Source: a virus. Taken from it: DNA of 45,771 nucleotides. Of the stretch, positions 7,593 through 31,835 are shown piece by piece. The stretch spans positions 1-45,771 of IMG/VR virus record IMGVR_UViG_3300006114_000017. One strand, 5' to 3'. Each line of letters opens with the position of its first letter. Positions within the stretch are counted from its first letter, which is position 1. The translations under genes were made by a program, and so were the position numbers. The notes below the pieces were generated by a model. That model was given only the letters and a program-made list of their open reading frames with translations, made no database searches and was not told the origin of the DNA.

Positions 7593-7594
7593 TG

Positions 7595-11715: not shown

Positions 11716-11727
11716 CAATTAGTCTTT

Positions 11728-14900: not shown

Positions 14901-15084
14901 TAGAAACTGTAGCAGTAAAACCAGCTAGAGTAAATACAGGGTCACCAATTTTAAACAATGTTACGCCACGTGTAGTGTTTACTACGGATACAAGACGTTC
15001 CTGTGGAATATACTGGTTGATTACGAGAGTTGAAGTACTCGGTGTAAATACGTAATTATCGTAGTACGATGTTGTTTGTGCCAT
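11920..15084 (-). CDS. Large Thr/Ser/Gly-rich structural protein (1054 aa). Tail or receptor-binding/tailspike-like is a candidate function.
   Basis: ATG at 15082-15084 with an AAGGA SD. Composition is beta-rich and low-complexity. No ATPase or nuclease motifs were seen, so a terminase call is rejected. Confidence 0.45.
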   Translation of the reverse strand: MAQTTSYYDNYVFTPSTSTLVINQYIPQERLVSVVNTTRGVTLFKIGDPVFTLAGFTATVSNQVSSTTNLPTSSSKGVTTVVFNGGTSGMLATDKITITVDEYAQRTVPVEELYDPVGKQRVSTPQSMIDTDFEYGNQTSKWEALGTTNWHPAGYNMYPPISLATNGLTVTGMTMSANSKTVTVLTSGGGLATGTPFSVQDAFFAPANGNFIVETSGTNSFTYSAKTVNTFGTPSGTSGFFDPFKTQVWQQQYYTGAAIGGTPTFTNSSNLITVTTTVPHGLSIGNEISVSGTSQSAANGNFYVTGITSASGLTYYALSAPGGTPTGGSITPRNQSLFAQRPFDGGVLFGPQSLSNHQSAIRQTRRNFHYQSGKGLEMATGTILNTAFTVDGISATGTTPGSTITVTTREQHNLTPGTSVNIAGVITSGYNGTYPIANILNATQFTITATGTLGNTSPSDYPANFICTVNGWYGAVQRMGLFNQENGMFFEYDGQQLYAVLRSSIKQVAGRATVTNGSTTVTATDGNFPTIFSKQLTPGQYIVIRGSSYRVTDIASDTQITISPAYRGITANYVTVTATVDNRVPQSQWNIDKLDGTGPSGYKLDLTKMQMWYLDYSWYGAGFVRWGLRTTDGNIMFCHKLANNNINTTAYMRSGNLPGRYETSTIPPITTTTSGIGATDTTIYVNNTLNPAGNSAFPASGTLAIKNATTGVEYVNYTTVTASSFGGLTRGIATPASLTLSLTSGSPIGSGTITGVAIGSKVTAPTLFPDNTYVASISGNFITFSNASVSTNASATVPVQAMGLAGTAFSYSATAPTTVELAMPTHSPYFSHWGTAVTMDGGFSPDANLLFTYGQTTPITLASGQTKALMSIRIAPSVDNSQTSSILGSHELANRVQLQLQTLDVSVTVTGTQGVGAGNVLIKAYLNGVPQLINGGTLPQWTNVVAGTNSPNSSLSQIADYSSVPNGVTVASGLAAGEVTGGFFVDTTQEVNVAGVRDLGNSVLNGGTSTVAALATPDKNIYPDGPDTLTLVAQNLNGVGVQLLGRISWNEPQA

Positions 15085-17164: not shown

Positions 17165-17653
17165 CTACTTGCTAGGCGGATTCGGCGCACCTGTGTTATC
17201 AGCGTCATATTCCTCTGATTTATTAACACGGCTTGCTTCTTCTACAGCAGGCGATTTCTTCATTTTTGTTAAGCCATTTGGCTCTGGGTGAGCAAAATAA
17301 CGCATTTTCGATGCAAAAGCCCAAACATCATCATCTTCTTGAACGCTGGCAGTCATCACAGGCTGTTCAGTGTGTGCAGATAAATTATCTGAGTATGGAC
17401 TACGAAGATCTTTGGTAAGCAAATTCTGCAATGAGAAGTCATAGTTATCTTGCTTAGCACCACCTGAGTTCATCAGGCAATATCCGTGTGAGTACAGTGG
17501 GCGCCTACCATCGACTGCAGTACCGTCCACAAGTACCTTACCCAAACCATCAGTGAATGATGGCATATCACAGAAACGGCAAGGTACTCCTGCAGGAGCG
17601 TCTTTTGGCTCTACGTAGCTTCTTTTACGGTTCATGTTATCCCTCGTCTTCAT
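17165..17653 (-). CDS. Hypothetical protein (162 aa). An alternative start gives MNRKRSYVEPKD..., which matches the recurrent N-terminal motif described in the findings.
   Basis: ATG at 17651-17653. A second in-frame ATG 6 codons later starts right after the upstream gene's stop codon. Confidence 0.45.
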   Translation of the reverse strand: MKTRDNMNRKRSYVEPKDAPAGVPCRFCDMPSFTDGLGKVLVDGTAVDGRRPLYSHGYCLMNSGGAKQDNYDFSLQNLLTKDLRSPYSDNLSAHTEQPVMTASVQEDDDVWAFASKMRYFAHPEPNGLTKMKKSPAVEEASRVNKSEEYDADNTGAPNPPSK

Positions 17654-20042
17654 CTTCTACATCAAACCCAGCAGCTCTCATACCACCATTGATGTGACCT
17701 TCGTTGTGGATGCCATCCGCAACATTCTCTTGCTCTTCGTGGCTCATGTTACGGCCATTCTTCTTAAAGAATTGCTTGTTGACCGTGTCAACCATGCCAT
17801 CAACGTCTCTATCTGAAATCTCTGGTGCTGCGCCACGGTTGAGTCGACCAGGCATTTGTGCAGACATTGGTGCGTCAAAGCTAGGACTTTCAACAGACTT
17901 CTTGTAAGGAGCATCAGCAATGATAAATCTCTGCTTGTCCTTCTCGCTTACATTGCCTGATGGGATACTGCGTATTTCTGGTGGAATCAGGTTGTAAGGG
18001 TGGTGCTCTGGTACTCCATACGTGTCTTCAAACTCGTGACCAAGACTTCTAAGTCGTCGTCTAGCTTCATTGTTAGGCGTAGTGAGCATGTGGTGCTTGA
18101 TACCCTCAGTGCTCAATCCTGTTGGCTTAACGTGCTTAACGATAACCTGGACCTTTGATTCTGGGTTGCTAACGTAATTGCGAGTACCATCTGGGTTTTT
18201 GCTGTCGCTTGTTAATAGATCTTTCTTTTGCATAGTTGTCTGGACATCGCCCACAACTTGAACGTGTTGTGAGTTAAGACGGTCCATTCTTGCAACCTGG
18301 CTAATGTGACAAGCGAAAGGAACTGCAGTTGTTCTTCTTGCGGTAGATCTTTCACCAACGATTGGTTGAATGCTATCAAGCGCATCAGAGATGTGGTTCT
18401 GCAAAGGTCCTCGGACAGCTTTGTCACGCTGACTACTGAATGTACTGTTTACAGTTGCGCCCTTTGAGAACATGGTCTTACGACGACCGCCGTATTGCCC
18501 CTTAAGCTGTTCTCTGAGGGCATCACGCTCATCTTTAGCAGTGGTTCCCCAGTGAACACCTTCGACGTATTGCCCATCGTGGCTAACGTTTGTGACAACA
18601 CCAAATACGTGCTTGCCTTGGAAACCACCACTGCTAGCAGACTCATCACGCTTGAGTCTTTGTCTGTTCGGGCTCTTTGTAAAGTTCTTTTGTTCACGGA
18701 TATTATTAGCAGCTTCTACCTGGTTTGTCCAGTCTTCGTAGTCCTGCTTAAATTGCTCATCGTGAGCACCATTCTTGTACTTAGAATCACCAGGAGTAGG
18801 CATGCCTGGCACGTGCACGGTTGCACCCCATTGAGGTGCCTTATACATCGTGTTAGGGACAGCCTTCTCACCAGGTGCTGTCTCGTATGCAGAATCTTGA
18901 GGCTGCTCAGCATGTAATGCGGCATTTGGCTCATTCGTATCCCAACCAAGGTGCCAGATAGGAGTACCACGTCTGATCTCTTGTCTAGGGTGACCACCCA
19001 TAATCTCCAAGGCAGGAGCGATGTTATCCTTTTCACCAACCACTGCTCTATAGGCAGCAAAAGCCATGGTATTTGGGCTTGACTTGCTACCCGCGAACGC
19101 TACGTGGCGTGGGATCTTAGGGTCTGTGCACTTTTCGCAACCATTAGTACAGTCGCAGTTATCACGAACAGAATCAACATACTTGCCACGTTCAATGTCA
19201 GCAGCACCCATTGGGCCGCCTTCACCGGTCTCAAAGTCACCTTGTCCTAAGTGGTGATCACAACCTGATTGACAATGCCAATCCTTGCCTTCATCGAATG
19301 TTTGTTCGTGTCTACAATTAAAGTCGGTGCATTCACTCTCAGGGTGGCAAGCCTTCTCTACGATGTTGCCATTCTTGTCTTTTTTATCTTTTTTGTGATT
19401 AAGAACTGCCTTATTAACAGGACAATTAGTATCGCACATTCCAGCCAAGCAGTGAGTGTTGTGCCAGTTAACAGCATCATTGTGGCGCCTAGTCTCTTCG
19501 TTGACATTTGTCATTCTATCGAAGGTGCCAGCATGTTCTCTTGGCTCATGATAACCTAAGTTGCCACAAGTAATGCATTCAATCTGATCGTGAGATCTAT
19601 CTGCTGGAGCCTCTGGGAAGCCGCCGTGCATCTTGCCCTTACAAGTAGGGCATGGGAATGCTGAGATTGCTGTAAGCACAGGAATCTTCATAGCTGCTTT
19701 GATGTAATTACGGTTGCTCAAATGGTCGCTTGGTACAACTGCAGTCTCCTGCAACTTTCTTGACTCTGGTGAGTTCTCAACGAACTTAACCTTCTGGCCC
19801 TTTGGGACTCTGATGCTCTTTTTGTCCTCAACGGTTCCTGGAGTGTGATACGTAAGGTCGCCAAACTCTTCTTGCTTCTTAGTCTTCTTCTTTTCCTTTT
19901 CCTTGCGCTGTCTAGCAACAGGCTCAGGCTCATAGGAAGAGAAGCCAGAATCACCGAGCTGTTCAGGGGTCAATGCACTGTATTCACCATACTCATCCTC
20001 GGGGAAAGAAGCAGTCTTTGAGTTGAAGATTGGTCTATTCAT
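17637..20042 (-). CDS. Large hydrophilic Cys/His-rich protein (801 aa) with multiple CxxC and CxxxxC clusters. Candidate internal (ejected) virion or zinc-binding protein.
   Basis: ATG at 20040-20042. Motifs include CPTCKGK, CITCGN, HCLAGMCDTNC, CHPESECTDFNCRH and CDCTNGCEKC. Confidence 0.5.
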   Translation of the reverse strand: MNRPIFNSKTASFPEDEYGEYSALTPEQLGDSGFSSYEPEPVARQRKEKEKKKTKKQEEFGDLTYHTPGTVEDKKSIRVPKGQKVKFVENSPESRKLQETAVVPSDHLSNRNYIKAAMKIPVLTAISAFPCPTCKGKMHGGFPEAPADRSHDQIECITCGNLGYHEPREHAGTFDRMTNVNEETRRHNDAVNWHNTHCLAGMCDTNCPVNKAVLNHKKDKKDKNGNIVEKACHPESECTDFNCRHEQTFDEGKDWHCQSGCDHHLGQGDFETGEGGPMGAADIERGKYVDSVRDNCDCTNGCEKCTDPKIPRHVAFAGSKSSPNTMAFAAYRAVVGEKDNIAPALEIMGGHPRQEIRRGTPIWHLGWDTNEPNAALHAEQPQDSAYETAPGEKAVPNTMYKAPQWGATVHVPGMPTPGDSKYKNGAHDEQFKQDYEDWTNQVEAANNIREQKNFTKSPNRQRLKRDESASSGGFQGKHVFGVVTNVSHDGQYVEGVHWGTTAKDERDALREQLKGQYGGRRKTMFSKGATVNSTFSSQRDKAVRGPLQNHISDALDSIQPIVGERSTARRTTAVPFACHISQVARMDRLNSQHVQVVGDVQTTMQKKDLLTSDSKNPDGTRNYVSNPESKVQVIVKHVKPTGLSTEGIKHHMLTTPNNEARRRLRSLGHEFEDTYGVPEHHPYNLIPPEIRSIPSGNVSEKDKQRFIIADAPYKKSVESPSFDAPMSAQMPGRLNRGAAPEISDRDVDGMVDTVNKQFFKKNGRNMSHEEQENVADGIHNEGHINGGMRAAGFDVEDEDEG

Positions 20043-22491
20043 TTGCTGGCTCTTCTACCTTCGCTGGGCTAATGGACCAGCTATCCGTTTGGTGTGTTGG
20101 GAACTTAGAAACAGATTGCTTAAAAGTTTCTTTTGCTGCGGGGCCACTGAAACGTTCAATCTGTTCAGCTAACTTATTTGATGCCTTTGTAGCTTCTTCC
20201 ATGTTTCCATGAGAAATGTGCTTGTACAATTCATCCTTAGTTTGATTGTAACGTCCAGTTGATGCATCTGGCAATGAGTTAACAGTCTTTTCTACAGAAG
20301 ATACACCTTCACGCATGTGCTCCGGGAATGCTTCAGGGTCGTGCTGGAACGTGGGCTGAGCAGCTCTCATCTTACGCTCGACTTTGTTGCTCATGTATGG
20401 AGGCAGCAAGTCAGGGAATGTACCGAACTCTTTAGACACTTCCTTAACAAGAGCAAGGTCTTTTGATGGTGCTGTGTAATGAGCATTCGGTGCTTTCCAG
20501 TGCTGCTCACTTTGACGAACAATCTGGTTCATACGCTCTTCAGGAATGTCAATACCATTCTTCATCATTCCGCTAACAAGGCGCTGATCAAGTGGTGCAT
20601 CGCTCTTCATGTCTTCTACACTTGAACCAAGCTTGCCCTTGTATGTTTCCATAGTGGTCTGGCCAGTTGATGGGTCAATGTAATTAGGGAAGTGATCAAA
20701 ACTGTGAGGGTTATCTGCTGTTCCTAGGCCACCGTATTGATTAGCAAACACTGCTTGTACGTGTCTCTTAGGCAAGTAGAACCCTGGTTTGCCACCCTTT
20801 GTCCTAGCACCATGGATGATGCGAGTGCCTGGGGGCAATGTGTTTGGGTCTGCGGCGCTTCTGATGTGACATGGGCATGGCAAGTTAGTAGGTTTGCCAT
20901 CCTTATCGAACATCTCCTGGTCGTCATGCTCGCAGTTCTTGCAATCATCACGTCTCAAGTGTGAATAGTGGTCAACACCAGTATTACCAACACCAGTACC
21001 AGAAAGTGGCATGTTGATCTCTGCGTTGCCATAGAAATCATCTGCGTATCCGTGCGTAGGAGGCTTCTTCTTCTTAATTACCTTTGGACCATCTACTGTC
21101 TTATCGATCAGAGTACCATCGCAGTGTGGGCAAACGTTATCAGGTGTCAAGGCAATGCTTGAGTCATCTGAGTGGCAGTTGTCGCAACTGATAGCGGAAG
21201 TATCATGTCCAGTAGCGTTGCAAGCAACACATGGGGTTGACTTTGCACCATCTTCGGTGAACTTATCACCCTTGCAAATCTTGCAAAGAGGTGCATCTTC
21301 TGGATTAACGTACTTTTGCTTACCGCCACCAAGGCCAATAGTGTGAGGTACCAAGATGGGGTTACCAGCACTGTCCGTGCTTTCCTTCATGTTAACATTG
21401 CCCTTGAAACAGCAACGGCAACCTACGATGTTATCATTCTGGTTGGAATTGATTTTACCATCACCACATGCGCACGAAGGGTGCTCCTCATGTGTAGTAG
21501 TTTCCCAGTCTCCAACAGTCTGCTGACCAGCTTTAAGCGTCTCATATCTGGTGTAACGCTTTACATGATCTCCGCCAGGCGTAAAGTGGATCATAGGCAT
21601 ATAGGTGCCTTCTGGGCCACCTTCATCGAATGCATGAGCTAGCTCTACACTCTTTTGACCCTTGCCGTTATCTACTTCACGATATGCTTTAAGTAGCGGG
21701 TTCTGCAGGAGTCTTTCCTTGTAGCCGGGTGTTGTGCCATGAACCATCTGTGGCAGCTGCTCTGGTTCCTTGCCTTTAGGACCGTGTGGGACTTCACAAC
21801 CGTTCTCTGAGTCTCCGCCACAAACACAAAGGCTTCCACCTCTTTTGTATGGACCGGTGCCGAGAGCCATTGACATAAGGTGGTCGATTGCATCACCCTT
21901 GTGTGTAGCAATCGTATTTGCTACCGAATCAGGGTCTAGACTTTCAGTTTCTGCTCCAACACCACGTGCTCTTTGCTTCCTACCTTGCGCATTGGCACGT
22001 AATAGCTTATCAGTAGCAGTGCTAATGTTTTCGCCTTTTGCTCTGCGTCTGAAACCAATCATGCCATGCGGAGCAAGCTCGAGAAGCTTGTCAGCGTTTT
22101 CGTGTTGTGAGTACTGTGATCTAGGAATTCTAATCATCTTGTATTCACCACTGCGCATCAAGTCTTGCTTGAGCTCACGGGCGTAGTCACCACCACGTTC
22201 ATTTTCACCTGAATACTTAGGCAAGTCTTTGTGGATGAATTCGTAACGCTTAGGTTCTGCAGTTGGGTTGTTAATGGGGTGGTAGTCGTTGTCACCAAAT
22301 TGGATAGCAAAAGGGGCGTCATTGAATTCTTCAGCCTGGGTACGTCGCTTTTCGACAGACTTGCGCTTCTTTCTTGCTTCACTCTCAGCCTTTTGATATT
22401 CTCTCTGCTTCTTGTTTACAAAGATGCGATCATCGTTACTGGCGGAAGTCTTAACGTATTCTATGTTCTTATTAAAAACAAACTTATTCAT
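20035..22491 (-). CDS. Large hydrophilic Cys-rich protein (818 aa) with multiple CxxC clusters. Possibly a paralogue or partner of the 801-aa protein.
   Basis: ATG at 22489-22491. Motifs include CVCGGDSENGC, CACGDG..GCRCC, CKICKG...CVACN...CDNCH...CPHCDG, CKNCEH and CPCH. Confidence 0.5.
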   Translation of the reverse strand: MNKFVFNKNIEYVKTSASNDDRIFVNKKQREYQKAESEARKKRKSVEKRRTQAEEFNDAPFAIQFGDNDYHPINNPTAEPKRYEFIHKDLPKYSGENERGGDYARELKQDLMRSGEYKMIRIPRSQYSQHENADKLLELAPHGMIGFRRRAKGENISTATDKLLRANAQGRKQRARGVGAETESLDPDSVANTIATHKGDAIDHLMSMALGTGPYKRGGSLCVCGGDSENGCEVPHGPKGKEPEQLPQMVHGTTPGYKERLLQNPLLKAYREVDNGKGQKSVELAHAFDEGGPEGTYMPMIHFTPGGDHVKRYTRYETLKAGQQTVGDWETTTHEEHPSCACGDGKINSNQNDNIVGCRCCFKGNVNMKESTDSAGNPILVPHTIGLGGGKQKYVNPEDAPLCKICKGDKFTEDGAKSTPCVACNATGHDTSAISCDNCHSDDSSIALTPDNVCPHCDGTLIDKTVDGPKVIKKKKPPTHGYADDFYGNAEINMPLSGTGVGNTGVDHYSHLRRDDCKNCEHDDQEMFDKDGKPTNLPCPCHIRSAADPNTLPPGTRIIHGARTKGGKPGFYLPKRHVQAVFANQYGGLGTADNPHSFDHFPNYIDPSTGQTTMETYKGKLGSSVEDMKSDAPLDQRLVSGMMKNGIDIPEERMNQIVRQSEQHWKAPNAHYTAPSKDLALVKEVSKEFGTFPDLLPPYMSNKVERKMRAAQPTFQHDPEAFPEHMREGVSSVEKTVNSLPDASTGRYNQTKDELYKHISHGNMEEATKASNKLAEQIERFSGPAAKETFKQSVSKFPTHQTDSWSISPAKVEEPANE

Positions 22492-22493
22492 TA

Positions 22494-23276
22494 TTAACTT
22501 TCGTCTTCCTCGAGGTCATTAACATCGAACATTCTTTGTACCTTTGCCCCAGGTATATTAACTGTTGGTGTATTAGATGGTTGGTTACTTGGTGGCGTAG
22601 CTTCAGGAACTGTTTGAACCTTACGCTCTCTTCTCTTTGGCGTAGGTGTTTCATCGACTGGTGTCGTTGATTCCTCAGAGTTATAACCCTTAACCTTTGA
22701 CTTCGGCATCTTAATATCATGCTTTGGTGCTTCATCATCGGCAGATAAATAAGTAACACCTGTAGTTACTGTCTGATATGGTGTTGGTGTTGTAACTGGA
22801 GCATCGCTGTCTTGTATACCACGAGTTCTAGAACGTTCTTTGTTCCTAACAACTCGTCTCTTCGTTTCGCTCTTCAAGCTACTTACAGCACGCTCAGTCT
22901 TGTTAATGTTCCTATTTTCAATGCGTTGATCTGTCTTACCAGATTCGCCTGGGTTCAGACCAGATGGACGCTGGTTAGCAACAGCATGTTCCATCTCAAC
23001 GATTTCATTACCAACAAAAAGAGCATGGTTTGCGCATGTGTGAACCTGTGTCACTCCAGATGGAGTGTAAATGAATTCACCATCTTTGTTCTCTGCTACG
23101 CCACCACGCTCGTAGCTCTTAGCACCTTTTGCTCTAGCTTTCAAAGCTTTCCTAGAAGAACGCTGGATGCTATCGCACGGGCCCAGAGAATCATATTTCT
23201 TCGCTTGTTCTGGAGCTAAGCTATCTCTAAGATCAGCTATGCAGCAACGCTTTCCCATATTAACATGCGTATCCAT
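22494..23276 (-). CDS. Hypothetical basic protein (260 aa)
   Basis: ORF track. ATG at 23274-23276. Confidence 0.45.
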   Translation of the reverse strand: MDTHVNMGKRCCIADLRDSLAPEQAKKYDSLGPCDSIQRSSRKALKARAKGAKSYERGGVAENKDGEFIYTPSGVTQVHTCANHALFVGNEIVEMEHAVANQRPSGLNPGESGKTDQRIENRNINKTERAVSSLKSETKRRVVRNKERSRTRGIQDSDAPVTTPTPYQTVTTGVTYLSADDEAPKHDIKMPKSKVKGYNSEESTTPVDETPTPKRRERKVQTVPEATPPSNQPSNTPTVNIPGAKVQRMFDVNDLEEDES

Positions 23277-24505
23277 TATTGATCTCCCTTGCAGCGGTAA
23301 GACTCAGCAATAAATTTGTCAACACGGTCAAATTTATTGCCAGGGTAGCTATCTGGAAATGGAGCGGTTTTGATTTTAGCGATGCCACTCTTGTAATCAT
23401 CACTTTGCTTAATCTTGGAGATGTTTTCTGGTGTTTCAAAGCCTCTTCTTTTTTCACAACCACAAAAGACGTGTGACTCTTGCTTAGTAGGCGTTGAGGG
23501 TGTAGACGCAGGAAGCAATGCTTGCTCTTCTCTTTTTTGCCTTATTTGCTTTATTTCGTCGAAAGTGTCTTTGAAGGCACCTGCGTAACCAGTACCTTCT
23601 TGCTCTCCGCGTCTTACAAGCATCTTATTGATAGATTCAATGTTTTGACGACCCTTCATTGCAAGCACTCGGTCTTGACCCTGCACACCGTGTTCGGGGA
23701 TAGCAATGGTAGTCTTACGTGATGGTTTGCTAGCAGGCACTCTAGAAGTTCCAGAAGACGCGCTTGAGTCATCGTCTTCAAAGTCTTCTAACTCTGGTAC
23801 GTGTTCTTCTGGGGTTTCATCAGTGGGAGCAGACTTTGTCTTATTGAACTTCTTATTGACAGGTGGCAATGCCTGGATAGGAATACCCTTATCTTCTTCC
23901 TGATCACCTTCATGTTCTTCTTCGTGAGAAACATTCTCTGGGATTTCTTCTTCAGCTTCTTCAGCTTCGTGAGGAGATTCTTCTTCTGGGTGTCCAGGAA
24001 GCGTTTCAGGATCGTAAGTGAACTTACCTACTTGTTCTTCTTCAGCTTTCTCTTCATCATTGGGTTCTGTATCAACTTGTTCTGGCTCTTTGTCTTCAGT
24101 TGCATCAGACCATTCTTCCTGCTTGCCTTCGTAGTCATCAGGATCGTAATCGTCGCTAGAAGCGTTGAAAAGCATTTTGAATGTGGCTGTCTTGCCCAAA
24201 GATGGCAATGCAATAATATTTGCTTTTTTCAAGAACTCAATAGATTCAGGAGAATATTTGATCGTGCCAGGCGTTTGGCCCTGCTTATTCAAAATGTCTT
24301 TAAGAGCGTCTTCTTCGCTGGTATAAAGCTTTTTAGGCGTTGAAACTGACGTAGGAGCAGTAGGGTGCTCTGTTCTCTTATATTTTCTAGGCCCTGGTTC
24401 TTTTTGCCCTGATTGTGTGTTATCTTTTCTCAAATACCACTCAGGGTCTCCATTACTAATGGCACCCGTACCCGAAGAGTACTTAGAATTAAATGTTTTA
24501 GCCAT
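23276..24505 (-). CDS. Hypothetical highly acidic protein (409 aa). N-terminus is MAKTFNSKYSSG...
   Basis: ATG at 24503-24505. Glu/Asp-rich central region. Confidence 0.45.
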   Translation of the reverse strand: MAKTFNSKYSSGTGAISNGDPEWYLRKDNTQSGQKEPGPRKYKRTEHPTAPTSVSTPKKLYTSEEDALKDILNKQGQTPGTIKYSPESIEFLKKANIIALPSLGKTATFKMLFNASSDDYDPDDYEGKQEEWSDATEDKEPEQVDTEPNDEEKAEEEQVGKFTYDPETLPGHPEEESPHEAEEAEEEIPENVSHEEEHEGDQEEDKGIPIQALPPVNKKFNKTKSAPTDETPEEHVPELEDFEDDDSSASSGTSRVPASKPSRKTTIAIPEHGVQGQDRVLAMKGRQNIESINKMLVRRGEQEGTGYAGAFKDTFDEIKQIRQKREEQALLPASTPSTPTKQESHVFCGCEKRRGFETPENISKIKQSDDYKSGIAKIKTAPFPDSYPGNKFDRVDKFIAESYRCKGDQ

Positions 24506-25230: not shown

Positions 25231-25314
25231 TGGTCGATGGGGAGAGATTCGAACTCCCGTACCCGAAGGATCTGGTTTACAGCCAGACGCGATTGGCCAC
25301 TCCGCCACCCATCG
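25231..25314 (-). tRNA. tRNA-Tyr (anticodon GTA), type II with a long variable arm. CCA is encoded.
   Basis: Hand-folded cloverleaf: acceptor CGATGGG/CCCATCG, 3-bp D-stem, anticodon stem TCTGG/CCAGA with loop CTGTAAA, long variable arm, T-arm GGGAG-TTCGAAT-CTCTC. Confidence 0.7.
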
Positions 25315-25319
25315 ATTTG

Positions 25320-25390
25320 CTGAGGGAGAAGGACTCGAACCTTCAACAAAAGCTCCAAAGGCTCCCGTGTTGCCATTACACCATCCCTCA
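25320..25390 (-). tRNA. tRNA-Gln (anticodon TTG)
   Basis: Acceptor TGAGGGA/TCCCTCA, anticodon loop CTTTGGA, T-arm GAAGG-TTCGAGT-CCTTC. The anticodon stem has two G-U pairs. Confidence 0.6.
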
Positions 25391-25412
25391 ATGTTTATTG
25401 CATGGCATGCAG

Positions 25413-25499
25413 CGGAATGAGTAGGATTCGAACCTACGGAGGCTTTGATACCTCGCCGGTTTAGCAAACCGGTGCTTTCGACCACTCAGCCATCATTCC
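25413..25499 (-). tRNA. tRNA-Ser (anticodon GCT), type II with a long variable arm
   Basis: Acceptor GGAATGA/TCATTCC, anticodon stem CCGGT/ACCGG with loop TTGCTAA, long variable arm, T-arm GTAGG-TTCGAAT-CCTAC. Confidence 0.65.
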
Positions 25500-25504
25500 T
25501 TATG

Positions 25505-25576
25505 CTCCCAGGGTAGGGATCGAACCTACGACCGAGCGATTAACAGTCGCTTGCTCTGCCGCTGAGCTACCTGGGA
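25505..25576 (-). tRNA. tRNA-Asn (anticodon GTT)
   Basis: Acceptor TCCCAGG/CCTGGGA, D-loop AGCTCAGCGGCAGAGC, anticodon stem AGCGA/TCGCT with loop CTGTTAA, T-arm GTAGG-TTCGATCCC. Confidence 0.7.
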
Positions 25577-25584
25577 TTGTAAAA

Positions 25585-25941
25585 CTAGTCTCCTTTGACC
25601 ACTCTGATACTATCATAGTCGAAGTGTTGGGTAGAGAACTCAAATACGCGTGAATTCTCTAGACCAATGATTCTGTGACGTAAACCGACAGGTACGTGGA
25701 AAAGGTCTCCCGCATTAAGCACCTTTTCCTGTGCGAGCTCGATATCGTCTGTCTCACCGTAAAGTACGATGACCTTACCGTTCTCTACGTAGAAGGTTTC
25801 GTCCTTGATGTTGTGATAATGGTAAGAAAGCTTCTTACCCTTATTCATGTGCAAGATCTTGGCGCAGTACTTCTCAGAGTTACAAAGAATCTCTTCATAA
25901 CCCCAGCCCTTTTCTACAAATTCCTTATTCAAAGAAGTCAT
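25585..25941 (-). CDS. Small cupin-fold sugar-phosphate isomerase-like protein, with the pattern of the type II phosphomannose-isomerase C-terminal cupin (118 aa)
   Basis: Pattern WG.E..L.....Y..K.L......LS.H.H....E...V..G...V ... VP.G..HR is typical of PMI-type cupins. The ORF tool starts at GTG 25944. The ATG at 25941 is preceded by an AAGGAA SD. Confidence 0.5.
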   Translation of the reverse strand: MTSLNKEFVEKGWGYEEILCNSEKYCAKILHMNKGKKLSYHYHNIKDETFYVENGKVIVLYGETDDIELAQEKVLNAGDLFHVPVGLRHRIIGLENSRVFEFSTQHFDYDSIRVVKGD

Positions 25942-26242
25942 CACTGTTTATTCCTTTGTCATCGATGTAAAAATCAGCAGAAGGTTTACCCATGATTAGA
26001 TGATGGTACTTACAACCCCATTGCTTAAGCTGACGCTCCGTAATGTCACGGAAAAGTATTTCTACAAGCTTTGGGTCATTATTTGTCCTATGCATACCTC
26101 GAGCCGTAAAATAAACGACTGTATGACCCTCTGAATAAAGCTTGTTTATCTGATCAATACGTTCTTGAACAGGCAGTGCATTTTCATACTTACCATCAGT
26201 AAGTGTGCAGATGGTGCCATCAATATCTACAACGTATCTCAT
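25925..26242 (-). CDS. Small HAD-superfamily phosphatase (105 aa). Proposed GmhB-like heptose-1,7-bisphosphate phosphatase role.
   Basis: HAD motif I VDIDGTI, motif II FTAR, a Lys in GKPS, and motif IV YIDDK. The pathway role comes from gene context only. Confidence 0.45.
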   Translation of the reverse strand: MRYVVDIDGTICTLTDGKYENALPVQERIDQINKLYSEGHTVVYFTARGMHRTNNDPKLVEILFRDITERQLKQWGCKYHHLIMGKPSADFYIDDKGINSDDFFE

Positions 26243-26628
26243 CGTTCTAAGATCCTAGTGGTTGAATAAGGCTCAAGTCTAGTGAAATAATCAATCTTCT
26301 TTGCGTACTCTTTACCAGGGAAGTCCTTGCCGAACCAGTCAGCACCAGCAAACCAGATATCTGGGGATAAAGCCTTGACGATATTGATCAGTTCTTCATC
26401 TGAGTCAAAGAGTAGCGTTTGATCAACATACTTAAAAGCATCAATAACAAATTGTCTATCATACTGATTATGGAAAGGTCGATCAGAGCCTTTCTTCTCT
26501 TTTACACGCCTATCAGTGTCGATAGCAACAGTTAGGGTGTCACCATGCGATTTGGCATGTTTTAGAAGTGCTACATGGCCTTTATGAATGACATCAAACG
26601 TGCCAGTTAAAAAGATCTTCTTATCCAT
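26239..26628 (-). CDS. hldC: D-glycero-beta-D-manno-heptose-1-phosphate adenylyltransferase (HldC / HldE domain II-like cytidylyltransferase fold)
   Basis: FLTGTFDVIHKGHVALLKHAK...GDTLTVAI.TDRRVKEKKGSDRP...VD.TLLF..D...I.....PDIWF.GADW parallels E. coli HldE domain II (GVFDILHAGHVSYL..ARKLGDRLIVAVNSD..TKRLKGDSRP...). The HxGH nucleotidyltransferase motif is present. Confidence 0.7.
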   Translation of the reverse strand: MDKKIFLTGTFDVIHKGHVALLKHAKSHGDTLTVAIDTDRRVKEKKGSDRPFHNQYDRQFVIDAFKYVDQTLLFDSDEELINIVKALSPDIWFAGADWFGKDFPGKEYAKKIDYFTRLEPYSTTRILER

Positions 26629-27406
26629 TTAGATACTCGTCTACAGTCTTGAATTTGTAGTCACCCCACTCTGGCTTAGCACAGGTATACGTCTGATACT
26701 TGCCAACCAGGTGTTCTGGGAACGGTACATATTCTATAGCACCGTTATAAAGGTATGCAACTGACTCAGCAACGTCTTTAAAGCTAATTGGGTTGCTTGT
26801 GCCAAGATCATAGATGCCAGAAGGCTTATCGTTGTTGAGAACGATTTCAACAAGGTCATCAACGCAGACAAAGTCTCTCTTGAAGTTCTCTGAGCCTTCA
26901 AACAGCTTTAGAGAGCCTGTCTCTTTAATTTGGGCTGAGAACTTGCTAACAGGGCTTGCCTGGTCACCTTTACGGCCTTCATAATCACCATATACGTTGA
27001 AGTAACGAAAACCTTGGATAAGAGAGAACTTATCCATGTTATCTTGCACCCAGTAGTCAACTGTCAGCTTTGACATAGCATATTGGTTCTTAGGGTTAGG
27101 AATACCCTGCAAATCGCCATAAACGGAAGCAGAAGAAGCATACTTAACAGGGATACCAAAAGAGATAGCAATCTCAAAGAGGTCTATCGTGTATTCAACG
27201 TTCCAGGCATACAGTTTCTTAACATCCTTTTCAGTAGTGCTGGAGATAGCACCCTGGTGCAAAATAAGATCAACTTTATCCCATTCTTTAAAGTTATAAA
27301 GGAAGTGATAAGCATCTTCTTTATCAATAGGCAATAAAGGCTTGTTAGAAAGAACCTTGCTAAAGTTTCTACCAATGAAACCTTCTGAACCAGTCAAAAT
27401 GATCAT
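26621..27406 (-). CDS. hldD: ADP-L-glycero-D-manno-heptose 6-epimerase (HldD/RfaD-like SDR)
   Basis: [14 protein letters not shown]... shows the N-terminal Rossmann motif. [27 protein letters not shown] and [20 protein letters not shown] are near-identical to conserved HldD segments ([50 protein letters not shown]). Confidence 0.8.
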   Translation of the reverse strand: [261 protein letters not shown]

Positions 27407-28131
27407 ATCGTTGTAACCCCTCTATGCTTTACCACTTCAGAAGCGCATTTATTAGCATACTCAATGCTTTTGATGATATTGCCGCAATTAGCATACTCAA
27501 CGACAAGTGCTGCCATGAAAGCATCGCCTGCACCTGAGGAGTCCTTGACTTCTACCTTGTCAACGTGATAACGGTTACCGTTGTACTCGCAACCATCTCC
27601 ACCCATCGTATGGATGATCTTCTTCTTGAAAGATTCTGTAACTTTGGGGTCAGAGTTCTTGTATTCGTAATCGTTGATCTTAATGATGAAAGCCTTTTTG
27701 GCCCACTTCCCTAGCTTCTTCTTAGTATCGAGGAATACACGTGGGTGTGACTTACAAATATCTTTGATGTCGTCTTCTGTTAGATAACCTTTGTTATAGT
27801 CAGAAATAACTACAATGTCATATTCGCTGTAATCGATATCGTTTTTAAACCTACCATAGTTTGGCTCTGTATCGACTCTAATAAACATGTGGTTAGTTGC
27901 TTCATGAACGTATCTTGTCTTAGTAATAGACCGCCAATTATGGTTGGTTCTAATGTTGACGTCATCCGCAAACTTTTTGATGTTGTTTAACACGTTCAGT
28001 GCCATACCAGGATTCTTTACCTCATGCATGGCGTTTAGCACAGGTACTGGAATATCGGGTGCAAGACGCATTGCATCACAATAAACAAATACGTCCATGC
28101 AACTTTCACCTATTACTAAAATTTTAGTCAT
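27403..28131 (-). CDS. hldA: D-beta-D-heptose-7-phosphate 1-kinase (HldA / HldE domain I-like, PfkB ribokinase family)
   Basis: ILVIGESCMDVFVY matches VMVVGDVMLDRYWY. PVPVLNAM...NPGMALNVLNNIKKF matches PVPVVKV...RPGGAANVAMNIASLG. PfkB signature GAGDAFMAAL...ANKCASEVV matches GAGDTVIGVL...ANAAAGVVV. Confidence 0.7.
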   Translation of the reverse strand: MTKILVIGESCMDVFVYCDAMRLAPDIPVPVLNAMHEVKNPGMALNVLNNIKKFADDVNIRTNHNWRSITKTRYVHEATNHMFIRVDTEPNYGRFKNDIDYSEYDIVVISDYNKGYLTEDDIKDICKSHPRVFLDTKKKLGKWAKKAFIIKINDYEYKNSDPKVTESFKKKIIHTMGGDGCEYNGNRYHVDKVEVKDSSGAGDAFMAALVVEYANCGNIIKSIEYANKCASEVVKHRGVTTI

Positions 28132-28613
28132 TAGAAAATAGGTAAGCCATCTTTTTTAAGATAGATCATGGCAGGGGCCTTGATCAAATATGCATCAATC
28201 ATAGCCTTTTCTGTAGCTTCACGGCTAGTAGGAAAGTAACTTTGTACATTTTTGAATACCGTAGCTAAGCGTTCAGGGTTGAGCGGACGGTGAGTAGGAC
28301 CATGCGTTGGATAATCAGAATAACCAACCAACATAACAGGCAAGTTTTGTTCATCAATATCAATTTTGACTTGCTCATAAGGTCGTTCGATTACAAAAGG
28401 AGTAATTGAATAAACTACTGGACGAAACCCATCGATAGCAAGACCAGCAGCCAAGCTAGTAATTGATTGCTCAGTGAGACCAAGGTTGAAGAACCGTTCA
28501 GGAAACTTTTCTTTGAACTCAGTCATCTCTTGCTCTACGTCGCCTGTAATCAATACGATGCGATCATCTTTTTCAGCGAGCTTAACGATTGTCTTACCGA
28601 ATGCTACTCTCAT
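28131..28613 (-). CDS. Transketolase C-terminal (pyrimidine-binding, Pyr-domain) subunit. Short, about 160 aa.
   Basis: GLTEQSITSLAAGLAIDGFRPVV...F matches the transketolase/DXS Pyr-domain consensus. Start moved to ATG 28613 (MRVAFGK), which forms an ATGA overlap with the upstream subunit stop. The typical C-terminal domain appears absent. Confidence 0.55.
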   Translation of the reverse strand: MRVAFGKTIVKLAEKDDRIVLITGDVEQEMTEFKEKFPERFFNLGLTEQSITSLAAGLAIDGFRPVVYSITPFVIERPYEQVKIDIDEQNLPVMLVGYSDYPTHGPTHRPLNPERLATVFKNVQSYFPTSREATEKAMIDAYLIKAPAMIYLKKDGLPIF

Positions 28614-29335
28614 GCCAGTTCCTCCAATGCTTGCTTTTCTAGGTCTCCACCTAGCCAATTTGAGTGCCATTTAGGTTGGTTTTCCATAAAGCTTACACCC
28701 TTACCCTTGATTGTGTTTGCAACAATCAAAGTAGGAGATACTGCAGCTTCAAAATTGATGTTGATAAGATCATCGTTGTGACCATCAATTTCATGCACTT
28801 CCCAACCAGCAGCTTGTGCAGCAGCAATAAGAGCACGGTCTACGGGCATGATTTCGTCAACGTACCCAGAACCCTGGATCTTATTGTTATCTACGATAAC
28901 AACCAAGTTATTGAGCTTTAGGCGTGCAGCAATAAGAATTGATTCCCAAGTAGTGCCTTCTTGGCATTCGCCATCACCCATAAGAACAAACACTTTTTCA
29001 TTTGAGTTGTTGAGCTTACGAGCAAGAGCCATCCCCATAGACACTGGGAAACCATGTCCCATGCTACCTGCGGTGCAATAAATGCCATTCTCAGGCTCAT
29101 AATGAGGGTGACCTTCAAGGGTGGGGTTATAACCTTGTTCACGCAAAAGCACATAGTATGACCAGCAGCTGTGCCCCTTGCTCAAAACAAAACGGTCATT
29201 CTTTCCCATGATTTTATCAAAAAGATTGATCAGAATTTCAGTACAACTAAAGCTACCGCCATAATGATAACCACCATTAGCTTTGCTAATCTCAATAGCA
29301 TCTCTGCGTACTTGCTTTGATCTTTCGTTTAACAT
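28610..29335 (-). CDS. Transketolase N-terminal (thiamine-diphosphate-binding) subunit
   Basis: GHSCWSYY, GSMGHGFPVSMGMALA, GDGECQEGTTWESILIAARLKLNNLVVIVDNNKIQ (the TPP-binding GDG-x25-N motif) and KGKG are present. ORF-tool start is TTG 29362. The ATG at 29335 overlaps the upstream stop (TAATG). Confidence 0.65.
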   Translation of the reverse strand: MLNERSKQVRRDAIEISKANGGYHYGGSFSCTEILINLFDKIMGKNDRFVLSKGHSCWSYYVLLREQGYNPTLEGHPHYEPENGIYCTAGSMGHGFPVSMGMALARKLNNSNEKVFVLMGDGECQEGTTWESILIAARLKLNNLVVIVDNNKIQGSGYVDEIMPVDRALIAAAQAAGWEVHEIDGHNDDLININFEAAVSPTLIVANTIKGKGVSFMENQPKWHSNWLGGDLEKQALEELA

Positions 29336-29901
29336 TAATTGGCCTTTCCAGATAGATTGCAAATTAGAATTTTTTTATCTTCATCGTAATCAAACTCACA
29401 TGCGTTGTCATACTCTTTAATATAGTTAATTAATTTTTGCTTTGTAGTTTCTTCATCACCAAAATCAAGAGCCATACCACTAGAAGAATCACCAAGCAGA
29501 TCAATATCATCAATCAGAATAGTGTGAGCTTTGCGAGGGCGAGCAAAGATTACGTTTAACTCATCCATCAAAGGAACTGCTGGGTGTTCTACATTCGGGT
29601 CACCGCTTGCGCTGTGAGCATCGAGCCAGAAATCTAGCGGGACATCATAAGGCTCAATCATCTCTGATAATTTTTCTTTTGAGTCGCCTAGAAATAACAC
29701 TACTCTGTTGTCATTATCAAACTTGCTACAACAATTATCGTAGAAAGATTTATTGAACTCAACAGTTATAACCTTTTCATAACCAAGACCAAGTGCTATT
29801 TCTACTGTATAGCCATGTTGTGTACCAGTTTCTACAAAGATATTATTTCTCTTATATTTAGAGAACATCAATGTCATTGCTTCTGTGCTTCTATCTGCCA
29901 T
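29335..29901 (-). CDS. Putative class I SAM-dependent methyltransferase (188 aa). Sugar O-methyltransferase is a candidate function.
   Basis: Gly-rich motif-I-like VETGTQHGYTVEIA is followed by an acidic residue at the end of beta-2 (EKVITVEF). No SIS motif is present, so it is not GmhA. Family assignment is tentative. Confidence 0.3.
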   Translation of the reverse strand: MADRSTEAMTLMFSKYKRNNIFVETGTQHGYTVEIALGLGYEKVITVEFNKSFYDNCCSKFDNDNRVVLFLGDSKEKLSEMIEPYDVPLDFWLDAHSASGDPNVEHPAVPLMDELNVIFARPRKAHTILIDDIDLLGDSSSGMALDFGDEETTKQKLINYIKEYDNACEFDYDEDKKILICNLSGKAN

Positions 29902-30911
29902 TATTCCATCTCAATCATTATTCTACCGGCAATGCCGCTTCTAAGTGTATCAAATGCTTCATTTACTTCGTCAAGTTTATATCTGTGAGTAATGAACTCA
30001 TCAATATAAAGCTTCCCAGCCTTCTCGAGCTTAACATAACGCAAGATATCGTTAGAAGGATCTGTCTTGCCACCCTGGGTAGCCTTGATACTAAGACCAT
30101 TACCATTAAAGAAGCTGAGTGCATTGACGATTTCAAGTGACGTTCCTGGCTTGGGTTGACCCACAAGAATCATTCGGCCATTGTTAGATAGATAGCCAAA
30201 GCTCTTCTTAATAACATCGACGTTTCCAGTCGTATCAATAACAACGTCTACTTTACCTTCAAACTCTGTTTCTGAAGTGTTGTAAAAGAAGTCAGCACCA
30301 GCCATGAATGAAAGGTCGCGCTTGCTTTCATTGTTGTCAATAGCAACAATTGGGCTAAGGCTACGCATAGCTGCACCTTGGATGAGGTTAAGCCCTACAC
30401 CACCCGTACCGACAACTGCAACGCTTTCACCAAACTTAAAATCGCACTCATTGTCGATAATACCTAGTGCGGTAGTCAAACTGCATCCAAGGAGCGCAGC
30501 GAGGTCATTAGGGGTCTCTGAAGGGACTGTAGTGAGTCGGTTCTCTGACACGATAGCCCACTGAGCAAGAGTATTTACCTTGCCACTACTAAAAGTCTTG
30601 TCACCAAGGGTGTACTGAGGAAACGCAGCATCGATACCAGTACCTGGTCGCCAGTGCATAACAACCTTGTCACCTACTTTAACAGTGGTTACTCCAGGGC
30701 CAATGTCTTCTACAATGCCACAACCCTCATGACCCATAAGGTGAGGAAGGAACTTGCCATTACCCTTGTTGCCATTGATCTCGTGTAGTTGTGAGCCACA
30801 GATACCGCTGACAAGGACACGAACCTGTACTTGACCCACTTGGAGCTCAGTAAGGCCAACATCTTCAATAGAAAGAGGAGCGTTGAGCTCTTTGAGAACG
30901 GCAGCCTTCAT
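29901..30911 (-). CDS. Zinc-dependent medium-chain alcohol/polyol dehydrogenase (MDR family)
   Basis: GHEGCG catalytic-zinc motif, GxGxxG NAD-binding motif (VVGTGGVGL), and the ~335 aa length typical of threonine/sorbitol dehydrogenase-like MDRs. Confidence 0.65.
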   Translation of the reverse strand: MKAAVLKELNAPLSIEDVGLTELQVGQVQVRVLVSGICGSQLHEINGNKGNGKFLPHLMGHEGCGIVEDIGPGVTTVKVGDKVVMHWRPGTGIDAAFPQYTLGDKTFSSGKVNTLAQWAIVSENRLTTVPSETPNDLAALLGCSLTTALGIIDNECDFKFGESVAVVGTGGVGLNLIQGAAMRSLSPIVAIDNNESKRDLSFMAGADFFYNTSETEFEGKVDVVIDTTGNVDVIKKSFGYLSNNGRMILVGQPKPGTSLEIVNALSFFNGNGLSIKATQGGKTDPSNDILRYVKLEKAGKLYIDEFITHRYKLDEVNEAFDTLRSGIAGRIMIEME

Positions 30912-31759
30912 TAGATCAACTCGTACAATGACTTGACGGTGCTGAACTTCTTATTGATGTCAAATGTTCTAGCCATATCACGGTAAGGAACATTTGTATT
31001 AACTCGGTCAAGCAGAGAGATGAACTCACCAACCGTTTCCATGCTCCACTTGTTAACAGCAGCAATGAAAGGTGCATTTGGTACGCCAACAACTGCCTTA
31101 CAACGCTTAGCTAGCTTACCAATATCAACCAAAGTCAAATTGTGATCTTGAGTGCTGCGGTAGCCTTCCACCTTGACAGTAGTAATGACTTTCTTACCCT
31201 CATCGGTCAAGTATTGCAGCAATGCAGCAAAGTTCTTGTCTTGTTCTTCTCTAGACATAAGAAGGACTGGGCTAACAGGGTATCCATTAATTACTAGGCA
31301 GTCAAACTCTTCGCCATCGAGTACATCCTCGGCAAAGCACTCTTCATCAAGTACAACATCATCAATAGAGTTGAATGGCTTGTTTAGGTGAGGCAAGTTG
31401 TACTGGTGCAGGTAGTTACCCATTTCATATACCCACATTGAGTAGCTGCTAAGGGTGTTGTCCTGCTTCGAGTAGTGGATAGGATCATAAATGCTATCGC
31501 CAAGCAAAGCGTGGCACCACAAGTCAATTGAATAACGTGGGTGTGGTGCATCAATAAAGCTTACGTTTGTATCTTGGATCAGCTCAACAAGTTGAGAACG
31601 ATACTGAGCAGGAATTAAGATGTTGCATTTAATTTGTTTGTTGTTTTCACACAACTTCTTCAAAACATGCAATGCAACAATGCAATCACCATGGCCTTTA
31701 TCACAATGGAAGTAAAGGTCGTTAGTCATTAACATATCTAAGTTAATTGATTTATTCAT
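30911..31759 (-). CDS. Putative GT9-family (heptosyltransferase-like) glycosyltransferase
   Basis: N-terminus ...GHGDCIVALHVLKKL resembles the GT9 N-terminus (xSSLGDVIhTLPAL). C-terminal ...LTLVDIGKLAKRCKAVVGVPNAPFIAAVN resembles GT9 ...LxELAALIxxAxLxIGNDSGPMHLAAA. The start is uncertain: the ORF-tool GTG at 31795 overlaps tRNA-Asp. The first ATG (31759) lies 3 nt from the tRNA 3' end, and later ATGs lie at ~31735 and ~31729. Confidence 0.45.
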   Translation of the reverse strand: MNKSINLDMLMTNDLYFHCDKGHGDCIVALHVLKKLCENNKQIKCNILIPAQYRSQLVELIQDTNVSFIDAPHPRYSIDLWCHALLGDSIYDPIHYSKQDNTLSSYSMWVYEMGNYLHQYNLPHLNKPFNSIDDVVLDEECFAEDVLDGEEFDCLVINGYPVSPVLLMSREEQDKNFAALLQYLTDEGKKVITTVKVEGYRSTQDHNLTLVDIGKLAKRCKAVVGVPNAPFIAAVNKWSMETVGEFISLLDRVNTNVPYRDMARTFDINKKFSTVKSLYELI

Positions 31760-31761
31760 AG

Positions 31762-31835
31762 CGACCTTGATGGGACTCGAACCCACGACCCCCACCGTGA
31801 CAGGGTGGTGCTCTAACCAACTGAGCTACAAGGCC
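31762..31835 (-). tRNA. tRNA-Asp (anticodon GTC)
   Basis: 5'-GGCCTTGTAGCTCAGTTGGTTAGAGCACCACCCTGTCACGGTGGGGGTCGTGGGTTCGAGTCCCATCAAGGTCG. Anticodon stem CCACC/GGTGG with loop CTGTCAC. T-arm GTGGG-TTCGAGT-CCCAT. Confidence 0.7.

Follow-up and report, generated by a model that had tools for sequence, protein, structure and literature searches.

D-Lyxose and D-mannose isomerases are cupin-fold enzymes that convert 2-ketoses to aldoses of lyxo or manno configuration. Their active site is composed of a metal ion held by a His/His/Glu/His set of ligands, a catalytic lysine, and lysine, glutamate and aspartate residues in contact with the sugar. Type II phosphomannose isomerases (PMIs; PF01050), represented by the C-terminal domains of AlgA and WbpW and by the MPI protein of cyanophage S-SCSM1, are small cupins as well and convert a ketose phosphate to a manno-aldose phosphate. 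The stereochemistry that lyxose/mannose isomerases produce at C2 and C3 is also that produced by GmhA, the sedoheptulose 7-phosphate (S7P) isomerase of the SIS family (TIGR00441), whose fold is Rossmann-like, whereas cupins are double-stranded beta-helices. Here we describe a gene for a small cupin in a stretch of viral DNA of 45,771 nt (positions 1 to 45,771 of IMG/VR virus record IMGVR_UViG_3300006114_000017; the window in the following text means this whole stretch). The gene belongs to a sugar operon, or island, with several predicted enzymes of nucleotide-heptose synthesis.

We propose that this cupin is a divalent-metal-dependent aldose-ketose isomerase that would convert S7P to the 7-phosphate of D-glycero-D-manno-heptose, the first committed step of a nucleotide-heptose pathway of the phage; we put the probability of this reading at roughly 0.55. 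That the protein is a ketol-isomerase of heptoses in one or the other phosphorylation state seems distinctly probable from its sequence and context. It would resemble GmhA in the reaction, in its position within pathway and gene clusters, in enediol chemistry assisted by a metal and in fusions to pathway enzymes, but the two have neither fold nor any sequence similarity in common. The first-pass annotation of the window had suggested a PMI-like cupin as a substitute for GmhA, and as a non-orthologous analogue the cupin is a plausible candidate, well supported by comparative genomics and by active-site conservation. In the literature searched, coverage of which was incomplete, we found no paper linking a cupin to S7P isomerisation.

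The cupin gene lies on the minus strand (Table 1), with a GTG at 25944, three bases upstream of the ATG and 7 nt after AAGGA, as an alternative start. That it codes for a 118-aa cupin, as annotated before, is confirmed by a Pfam search, in which the product exceeds the cutoff of Cupin_2 (PF07883; 32.1 bits against 27.2) and also that of Cupin_1. Of the cupin signature, composed of motif 1, G(X)5HXH(X)3-4E(X)6G, and a histidine in motif 2, the residues H41, H43, E48, G55 and H89 are invariant in the family. The AlphaFold model, calculated with 55 homologues as input, shows a barrel made up of beta strands only, at a mean pLDDT of 95.9. More than 950 homologues are found at E <= 1e-3 in a database clustered at 90%; the best 120 are 54-92% identical to the window protein and nearly all of them are 113-135 aa long. 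As the family is large and tightly conserved, with 24 columns invariant across 55 aligned sequences, the gene is genuine and strongly constrained. A fold search in BFVD returned generic cupins only.

The best Foldseek matches of the model are crystal structures of D-lyxose isomerases in the presence of mannose or fructose (27-28% identity), rather than non-isomerase cupins such as dioxygenases, which reach 12-14%. The family profile finds two of these isomerases by sequence alone, TsLI (7nzo) with E = 2.7e-5 and YdaE (2y0o) with E = 1.7e-4. Metal and sugar in TsLI are contacted by K62, H75, H77, K86, E88, H143, E156 and D163, and activity is reported to be lost when the residues equivalent to K86, E156 and D163 are mutated (PMC8378251). 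In the HMMER alignment, where the number in the PDB chain equals the number in the paper plus 24, all eight contacts align to identical residues of the window protein: K28, H41, H43, K46, E48, H89, E101 and D108, respectively. D108 is conserved in 73-93% of sequences, depending on the group; the other seven are conserved in at least 82% of every group and in at least 99% of the two largest ones, the viral module-linked and the cellular copies. Both families have the motif N..YC.K.L ... H.H..K.ETF ... E.S. in common.

The likeness has its limits. The window protein is about 60 residues shorter than lyxose isomerases (~170-230 aa), lacks their N-terminal region and their C-terminal extension, in which the pocket-restricting arginine of TsLI is located, and aligns with them over the core barrel only. 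It stays below the cutoff of PF07385, the D-lyxose/D-mannose isomerase family (17.8 bits against 20.8), although 26 of its 55 relatives match this family at E <= 0.01 (best 3.8e-6) and 18 of 55 match PF01050. It also has Ser39 at a position occupied by proline in lyxose isomerases.

This serine is one of the features for which the protein had been annotated as having the motif pattern of type II PMIs. Indeed, both share the W-G start, the serine preceding the metal motif, the glutamate ligand and the histidine of the second motif. The assignment itself holds less well: the PF01050 score, 18.8 bits, falls short of the cutoff of 23.6, TIGR01479 is sub-threshold too, and identity to the PMI domain of AlgA is 21% (the AlgA C-terminus used here is 92% identical to a Pseudomonas-derived record). 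In PMIs, the motif contains a serine that binds phosphate, a glutamine needed for catalysis and ring opening, a zinc-binding histidine, and Arg408 (PMC9602691). The corresponding S-x-Q-x-H-x-x-R reads S39-x-H41-x-H43-x-x-K46 in the cupin, so that two of the four positions differ (Gln to His, Arg to Lys). The metal ligand H41 and the basic K46 fit the lyxose-isomerase pattern, to which the likeness is at least as strong, while the PMI-like Ser39 is invariant. This hybrid pattern, together with invariant K11, S111 and R113, mildly favours a phosphorylated substrate. The family is better described as one of minimal cupins of the lyxose/mannose-isomerase kind that have PMI-like features than as "type II PMI".

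Other cupins of sugar metabolism are more distant. Cupin-type phosphoglucose isomerases of archaea (cPGI, 1J3P) show 14% identity, are ~190 aa long and act on gluco, not manno, sugars. The C-terminal domain of CapF (Cap5F) is, similarly to our protein, a metal-binding cupin in a capsule sugar pathway, but it shares 18-19% identity, takes a UDP-4-keto sugar and is fused to a short-chain dehydrogenase/reductase (SDR); the sugar contacts were matched to those of lyxose isomerases and not position by position to CapF. An RmlC-like epimerase acting on the nucleotide heptose, offered earlier as an alternative, is not supported: PF00908 is not among the Pfam matches at E <= 0.01 of the window cupin and its 55 relatives, the His/His/Glu/His site is complete, unlike the metal-free site of RmlC-like epimerases, and a 4,6-dehydratase is missing from most modules (a Gmd-like SDR lies within 10 kb in only 28 of 80 viral cupin loci).

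If the cupin works in the way of D-lyxose/D-mannose isomerases, the metal would be held by H41, H43, E48 and H89 and would bind O1 and O2 of the opened sugar. A cis-enediolate would then be formed as a proton passes between C1 and C2; E48 or E101 could serve as the base, and K46 and K28 would stabilise the intermediate and fix the manno configuration at C2. For the 7-phosphate, S39 and possibly K11, S111 and R113 are proposed as ligands from sequence only. Downstream in the pathway, the PfkB kinase would phosphorylate O1, the small HAD protein would take off the 7-phosphate, the HldC-like enzyme would form the nucleoside diphosphate (NDP)-heptose and the HldD-like SDR would epimerise C6; transketolase may supply S7P.

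The neighbouring genes point to the same step. Kinase, nucleotidyltransferase and SDR of the island have, independently of each other, their best matches among enzymes of the ADP-L-glycero-beta-D-manno-heptose pathway, and together with the HAD phosphatase they leave the isomerase step alone without a gene. Five activities are needed for the pathway (isomerase, kinase, phosphatase, nucleotidyltransferase and epimerase); four would be accounted for by these predicted enzymes, and the fifth gene is the cupin. All heptose-type scores of the island genes are below the curated equivalog cutoffs, so these enzymes are diverged relatives of the known ones. The operon runs on the minus strand, and the cupin is consequently its last (3'-most) gene, not the first as had been noted; the 17 nt from its start codon onwards are shared with the end of the HAD gene.

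No SIS-type isomerase was found by tblastn with GmhA in the window (best E = 8.7), in agreement with the first-pass annotation of the island. The query was an E. coli sequence that is 97% identical to an E. coli-derived record. The same search in all 50,697 records of a phage collection gave 18 matches, none of them in cyanophages. A true phage GmhA, that of Caulobacter phage Cr30 (32% identity), served as positive control and was detected at 1e-18, so the search is sensitive enough, and it follows that complete cyanophage genomes with the cupin encode no detectable GmhA. The cupin itself is present in 36 records of this collection, all from cyanomyoviruses or uncultured marine viruses (50-59% identity), and SIS GmhA is detectable in 0 of these 36. 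Cyanobacterial lipopolysaccharide (LPS) lacks heptose according to a review (PMC4515613); on that account, hosts may offer no heptose pathway or isomerase step to these phages.

Gene neighbourhoods were compared in three samples of 80 IMG/VR loci, each extending 10 kb from the seed gene in both directions. Sample (a) was seeded by the cupin and contains the best 80 of 588 confirmed IMG/VR stretches, sample (b) was seeded by SIS GmhA, and sample (c) by the PfkB kinase; the choice of loci in (a) and (b) depends on the very genes under comparison, and (c) is biased to relatives of the window kinase. Around the cupin, HAD is present in 70/80 loci, HldC in 65/80 and PfkB in 57/80, followed by a close HldD (28-30/80), a carbamoyltransferase (15/80) and transketolase (7/80), and SIS GmhA in 0/80. 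Around SIS GmhA, a kinase together with an HldC-like gene occurs in 24 loci, the cupin in two (L203 and L243) and the small HAD in two. Kinase-seeded loci contain the cupin in 41 cases and SIS in two, both of which have the cupin too, leaving 39 with neither; of the 42 loci of this sample that combine PfkB, HldC and HAD, 39 also have the cupin. Viral beta-type modules thus form two lineages, one with a short PfkB, HldC, small HAD and cupin and the other with a longer, bacterial-like PfkB, HldC and SIS GmhA. Two mutually distinct lineages are the pattern expected for non-orthologous displacement: the cupin clusters in the manner of GmhA with kinase, phosphatase and nucleotidyltransferase, and its distribution is largely complementary to that of SIS, with four exceptions discussed below.

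The cupin also occurs with a different set of heptose enzymes. In Synechococcus phages SynMITS9220M01 and Bellamy, it is located between a GHMP kinase that is a strong homologue of HddA (NF049969, 3e-85) and an HddC-like guanylyltransferase (2e-16), followed by RmlD-like and Gmd-like enzymes, so that the cluster is of GDP-(6-deoxy)-heptose type. The enzymes of the HddA/HddC pair are not homologous to those of the HldA/HldC pair, and the two routes share the isomerase and phosphatase steps only. Since the cupin accompanies both pairs and does not have a phosphatase fold, the isomerase step is singled out.

An exhaustive search of 1.84 billion representative proteins revealed fusions of the cupin with each of three partners from the module: with HAD (P0129, and P0154, which has an additional 260-aa domain), with the HldC-like transferase (P0126, P0137, P0141 and P0179) and with PfkB, either as PfkB-cupin (P0187) or as cupin-PfkB (P0229). 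Faulty gene calling could account for some of these fusions from metagenomes, though they are diverse and the cupin is found on either side of PfkB. GmhA itself is joined to GmhB in a fusion at locus L173. Isomerase/kinase/transferase fusions are also described in a commentary (PMC11461863). Two further cupin fusions (P0131 and P0173) have an N-terminal P-loop domain of ~200 aa, without family match and resembling deoxynucleoside monophosphate kinases by eye only; HNH or homing-endonuclease-like N-termini on the cupin of P0122, P0231 and P0134 may be merged gene calls.

Several observations weigh against the proposed role. Four viral loci (L203, L243, L296 and L318) contain both the cupin and an SIS GmhA-like gene, so the two are not strictly exclusive. 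L203 and L243 carry HddA, GmhA, an HldC-like gene and the cupin together, and the sister locus L206 lacks the cupin. The coexistence is clearest in L296 (2664-8037) and L318 (4781-12203), where two sub-modules adjoin each other, one with PfkB, HldD, HldC and cupin and the other with a GHMP kinase, an SIS GmhA-like gene, a HAD::nucleotidyltransferase fusion and a Gmd-like enzyme. This looks like two self-contained modules, each with an isomerase of its own, and bacteria with two heptose pathways often have two copies of gmhA. In sample (c), PfkB and HldC occur in 11 loci, of which three have HAD as well, with no isomerase of either kind within 10 kb; these may rely on the host. The SIS search of the window covers a 45.8-kb part of the phage genome. 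Finally, the nearest relatives, the known lyxose/mannose isomerases, act on free sugars, whereas the gene context of the cupin implies a seven-carbon sugar phosphate.

The cellular homologues, which retain all active-site residues, speak in the same sense, as their contexts differ from those of viruses. HldA, HldC or HAD is found nearby in only ~7-10 of 79 loci in cellular assemblies, and these are probably viral contigs binned into metagenome-assembled genomes. In Binataceae, the cupin ends glycan clusters with family 4 glycosyltransferases, a Wzy-like protein, a carbamoyltransferase and an SDR, and the copies of archaea and of candidate phyla radiation (CPR) bacteria stand alone. The cellular proteins could act on the same substrate, the kinase genes then lying elsewhere, or on a related ketose. 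One Binataceae example is L083 50-10330 (chromosome OY970324), which has about 20 similar counterparts; its carbamoyltransferase is of NodU/CmcH type, and the cluster has no kinase and no nucleotidyltransferase. The link to a carbamoyltransferase recurs between Binataceae clusters and the viral P-SSM2-like modules.

The preference of characterised relatives for unphosphorylated sugars leads to the rival explanation that survives best, although we regard it as unlikely. It keeps the chemistry and changes the order of steps: HAD would dephosphorylate S7P, the cupin would isomerise free sedoheptulose to D-glycero-D-manno-heptose, and PfkB would phosphorylate the anomeric position. HAD and cupin are in fact the tightest pair of the module, as seen in the overlap of their reading frames, in the frequency of HAD in cupin loci and in the fusions, and the small HAD is rare beside SIS GmhA. 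However, GDP-heptose-type clusters pair the cupin with HddA, whose family is that of heptose-7-phosphate kinases, and have no adjacent HAD. The invariant Ser39, moreover, stands at the position of the phosphate-binding serine of PMIs, and the invariant K11, S111 and R113 could bind phosphate as well.

Slightly less credible still is a late tailoring function, in which the cupin would be an epimerase or isomerase of NDP-heptose or NDP-4-keto-heptose (CapF- or RmlC-like), or a C2 epimerase working via a ketose, and the S7P isomerase would come from the host or from elsewhere in the phage genome. The four loci with both cupin and SIS GmhA would fit this, as would Gmd-like and RmlD-like enzymes in some clusters and the polysaccharide clusters without kinases in which cellular homologues are found. 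Against it, identity to CapF is lower than that to lyxose isomerases, the full contact set of which is conserved, and the RmlC family is not matched. The largest class of viral cupin loci (57/80) has PfkB, HldC and HAD around the cupin, compared with the smaller number that has a Gmd-like SDR nearby. No cupin-bearing cyanophage record has SIS GmhA, and cyanobacterial LPS is without heptose according to the review cited above (PMC4515613).

It is improbable that the cupin is a general minimal PMI, converting fructose 6-phosphate to mannose 6-phosphate and recruited to various glycan clusters. Homologues bear the JGI name "mannose-6-phosphate isomerase-like", PF01050 and TIGR01479 give sub-threshold matches, copies stand alone in small-genome archaea and CPR bacteria, and Ser39 is PMI-like in the alignment to the AlgA domain. 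The C-terminal D-x-I-R of the cupin also resembles a PMI feature, as present in AlgA. Nevertheless, the protein fails the Pfam threshold, differs at two positions of the PMI motif, and its neighbours are heptose enzymes that include a C6 epimerase, which has no role on a hexose. True type II PMI cupins of other cyanophages, S-SCSM1 (MK867354), S-H68 and S-B05, are a separate family and adjoin GDP-mannose-derived genes. The phage records with such PMIs include MK867354, MK016663 and MK799832, and the uncultured marine virus AG-345-E15 (MH319741 17553-17873) has a PMI plus a window-type cupin; the two families are therefore distinct and able to coexist. A non-isomerase, either a dioxygenase, as in the "cysteine dioxygenase" label of RefSeq and phrog_7851 and in weak sequence matches to quercetinases in the PDB, or a small-molecule binding protein, is very improbable, as identity to dioxygenases is low and the context, fusions and conserved lyxose-isomerase contacts point to sugar chemistry; cysteine dioxygenase in particular is rejected, with no Pfam or NCBIfam match and likeness at the level of fold only (12-13% identity).

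The proposed S7P isomerase and its neighbours are listed in Table 1.

Table 1. The cupin gene, its active-site motifs and the surrounding operon (positions in the window)
Feature	Position	Strand	Evidence and remarks
Cupin ORF (open reading frame), 118 aa from ATG; candidate ketol-isomerase between S7P and the 7-phosphate of D-glycero-D-manno-heptose	25585..25941	minus	ATG at 25941; stop at 25585
Motif S39-Y-H41-Y-H43-N-I-K46-D-E48 of cupin	25798..25827	minus	First three metal ligands, catalytic Lys, Ser (phosphate binder in type I/II PMIs); aligned to TsLI H75, H77, K86, E88; family-invariant
Second half of active site of cupin: H89 (fourth metal ligand), E101 and D108; family-invariant D110, S111, R113	25603..25677	minus	Alignment to TsLI (E101 and D108 = E156 and D163)
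Small HAD phosphatase, 105 aa, DIDGT motif; candidate GmhB analogue	25925..26242	minus	TIGR01689 6e-12; HAD-IIIA; phrog_1238; PDB 9iqw 4.6e-13
HldC-like heptose-1-phosphate nucleotidyltransferase, 129 aa	26239..26628	minus	TIGR02199 (rfaE_dom_II) 1.2e-28; PF01467; PDB 5x9q 5.7e-15
HldD-like SDR, 261 aa, ADP-glycero-manno-heptose 6-epimerase-like	26621..27406	minus	TIGR02197 (heptose_epim) 2e-60
Short PfkB kinase, 242 aa, HldA-like heptose-7-phosphate 1-kinase	27403..28131	minus	TIGR02198 (rfaE_dom_I) 1.5e-27; best PDB match HldA 4e84
Transketolase-like enzyme, two overlapping ORFs; possible S7P supply	28131..29362	minus	28610-29362 thiamine pyrophosphate (TPP)-binding part; 28131-28670 pyrimidine-binding part
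188-aa protein	29335..29901	minus	No family match
Zn-dependent alcohol dehydrogenase	29901..30911	minus	Pfam ADH_N + ADH_zinc_N
294-aa protein	30911..31795	minus	No family match
tRNA cluster Asn, Ser, Gln, Tyr, bounding 3' end of operon	25231..25576	minus	Four tRNA genes after cupin

The module is present in other marine phages. The closest homologue of the cupin (92% identity) is encoded on 120-132-kb marine metagenome contigs in the same gene order as in the window. A 55%-identical homologue is found in P-SSM2-like contigs, where HldC, PfkB, HAD and cupin are followed by an SDR on the opposite strand and lie beside a carbamoyltransferase; in P-SSM2, the module corresponds to PSSM2_309 to PSSM2_313, with PSSM2_312 as the orthologue of the cupin (AIR93531 in P-TIM68). 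Prochlorococcus phage P-TIM68 has almost the full set of the window, with alcohol dehydrogenase, transketolase-like enzyme, kinase, epimerase, nucleotidyltransferase, cupin and HAD, and S-SSM7, S-CAM1 and Sf-CH8 have similar modules. At the nucleotide level, nothing of the island but a tRNA has a counterpart in the phage collection, so the island has no close sequenced relative there. Enzymes able to supply S7P are found in a minority of loci: beside the transketolases of sample (a), these are RpiB, AraD-like enzyme and transaldolase in L017 and L134. The latter loci (L017 6201-10351 and L134 ~4155-10350) are larger sugar-phosphate loci on marine contigs, composed of an RpiB::HldC fusion (RpiB above its curated cutoff), PfkB, an AraD-like class II aldolase/epimerase, transaldolase, HAD and cupin, and they contain a second, PMI-like cupin paralogue of 147 aa. 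Their pentose-phosphate enzymes could supply S7P.

Annotation of these modules is misleading. In GenBank records of cyanophages and in PHROGs (phrog_1238), the small HAD protein (~105-114 aa), e.g. L009 6676-7020 (PSSM2_311), is called "phosphoheptose isomerase", and the label is repeated in papers (e.g. PMC7378029); the cupin is called "putative nucleotidyltransferase" or "cysteine dioxygenase". We considered the small HAD as the real GmhA and rejected it: it has a DxDGT motif and HAD-family matches and no SIS match, and the isomerase label is thus an annotation error, the origin of which may lie in GmhB-GmhA fusions, L173 being an example. Its best relatives in the PDB are small HAD-like "capsule biosynthesis" proteins. 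According to the commentary (PMC11461863), a recent cross-kingdom survey reported the heptose-bisphosphate phosphatase to be absent from viruses; the small HAD is a candidate for this missing viral phosphatase.

We would give even odds to a wider proposal, namely that the family of ~117-aa cupins represents a previously unrecognised second type of S7P isomerase, analogous and not homologous to GmhA, which together with the mislabelled HAD would equip marine phages with a full, autonomous route to NDP-heptose and would also serve archaea, CPR bacteria and Binatota. If confirmed, it would be a new analogous enzyme for a known reaction and the second case, after cupin phosphoglucose isomerases, of a cupin displacing a sugar-phosphate isomerase of SIS fold. 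Heptose or "LPS" clusters of cyanophages are treated as auxiliary metabolic genes, and their isomerase step looks covered only because of the misnamed HAD; an annotation dating from early cyanophage records such as P-SSM2, and widespread in marine phages, would be corrected. Searches by GmhA homology would undercount the organisms and viruses that make NDP-heptoses, and inhibitors of GmhA would miss the cupin route. The view of which viruses make heptose nucleotides, which are agonists of ALPK1, would have to be revised as well, with at least 588 IMG/VR stretches encoding the cupin. Being small and stable-looking, the protein may also serve heptose production.

Some further features of the window deserve mention. 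The C-terminus of the HldC-like transferase (26239-26628, minus) ends in ...FTRLEPYSTTRILER, with an S-T-T motif and, five residues upstream of it, an arginine. The arrangement resembles the "STTR5" feature, which according to the commentary (PMC11461863) is reported to allow synthesis of CDP- and UDP-heptose, so the nucleotide specificity of the window enzyme need not be for ADP. The two transketolase-like ORFs (28131-28670 and 28610-29362, minus) overlap by 61 nt; relatives have a single ORF of 357-412 aa (L001-L003; 381 aa in P-TIM68), and the split may be genuine or may stem from a frameshift or a sequencing error. None of these genes includes the transketolase C-terminal domain. The 188-aa and 294-aa ORFs were searched in Pfam, NCBIfam and PHROGs without any match, and comparison of the latter with the C-terminal domain of the fusion P0154 showed no similarity. 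As listed, with a GTG start, the 294-aa ORF (30911-31795) is overlapped at its 5' end by tRNA-Asp (31761-31835, minus); its true start is probably further downstream, the homologue in L001 being 282 aa long. The window belongs to a tailed phage, as it carries a portal gene (9334-11718) and a virion protein gene (11920-15084). Between the structural genes and the sugar island lie two large minus-strand ORFs, 17637-20042 (801 aa) and 20035-22491 (818 aa, Cys-rich), which have no PHROG match, and a gene for a 409-aa protein (23276-24505, minus) with a very acidic middle region.

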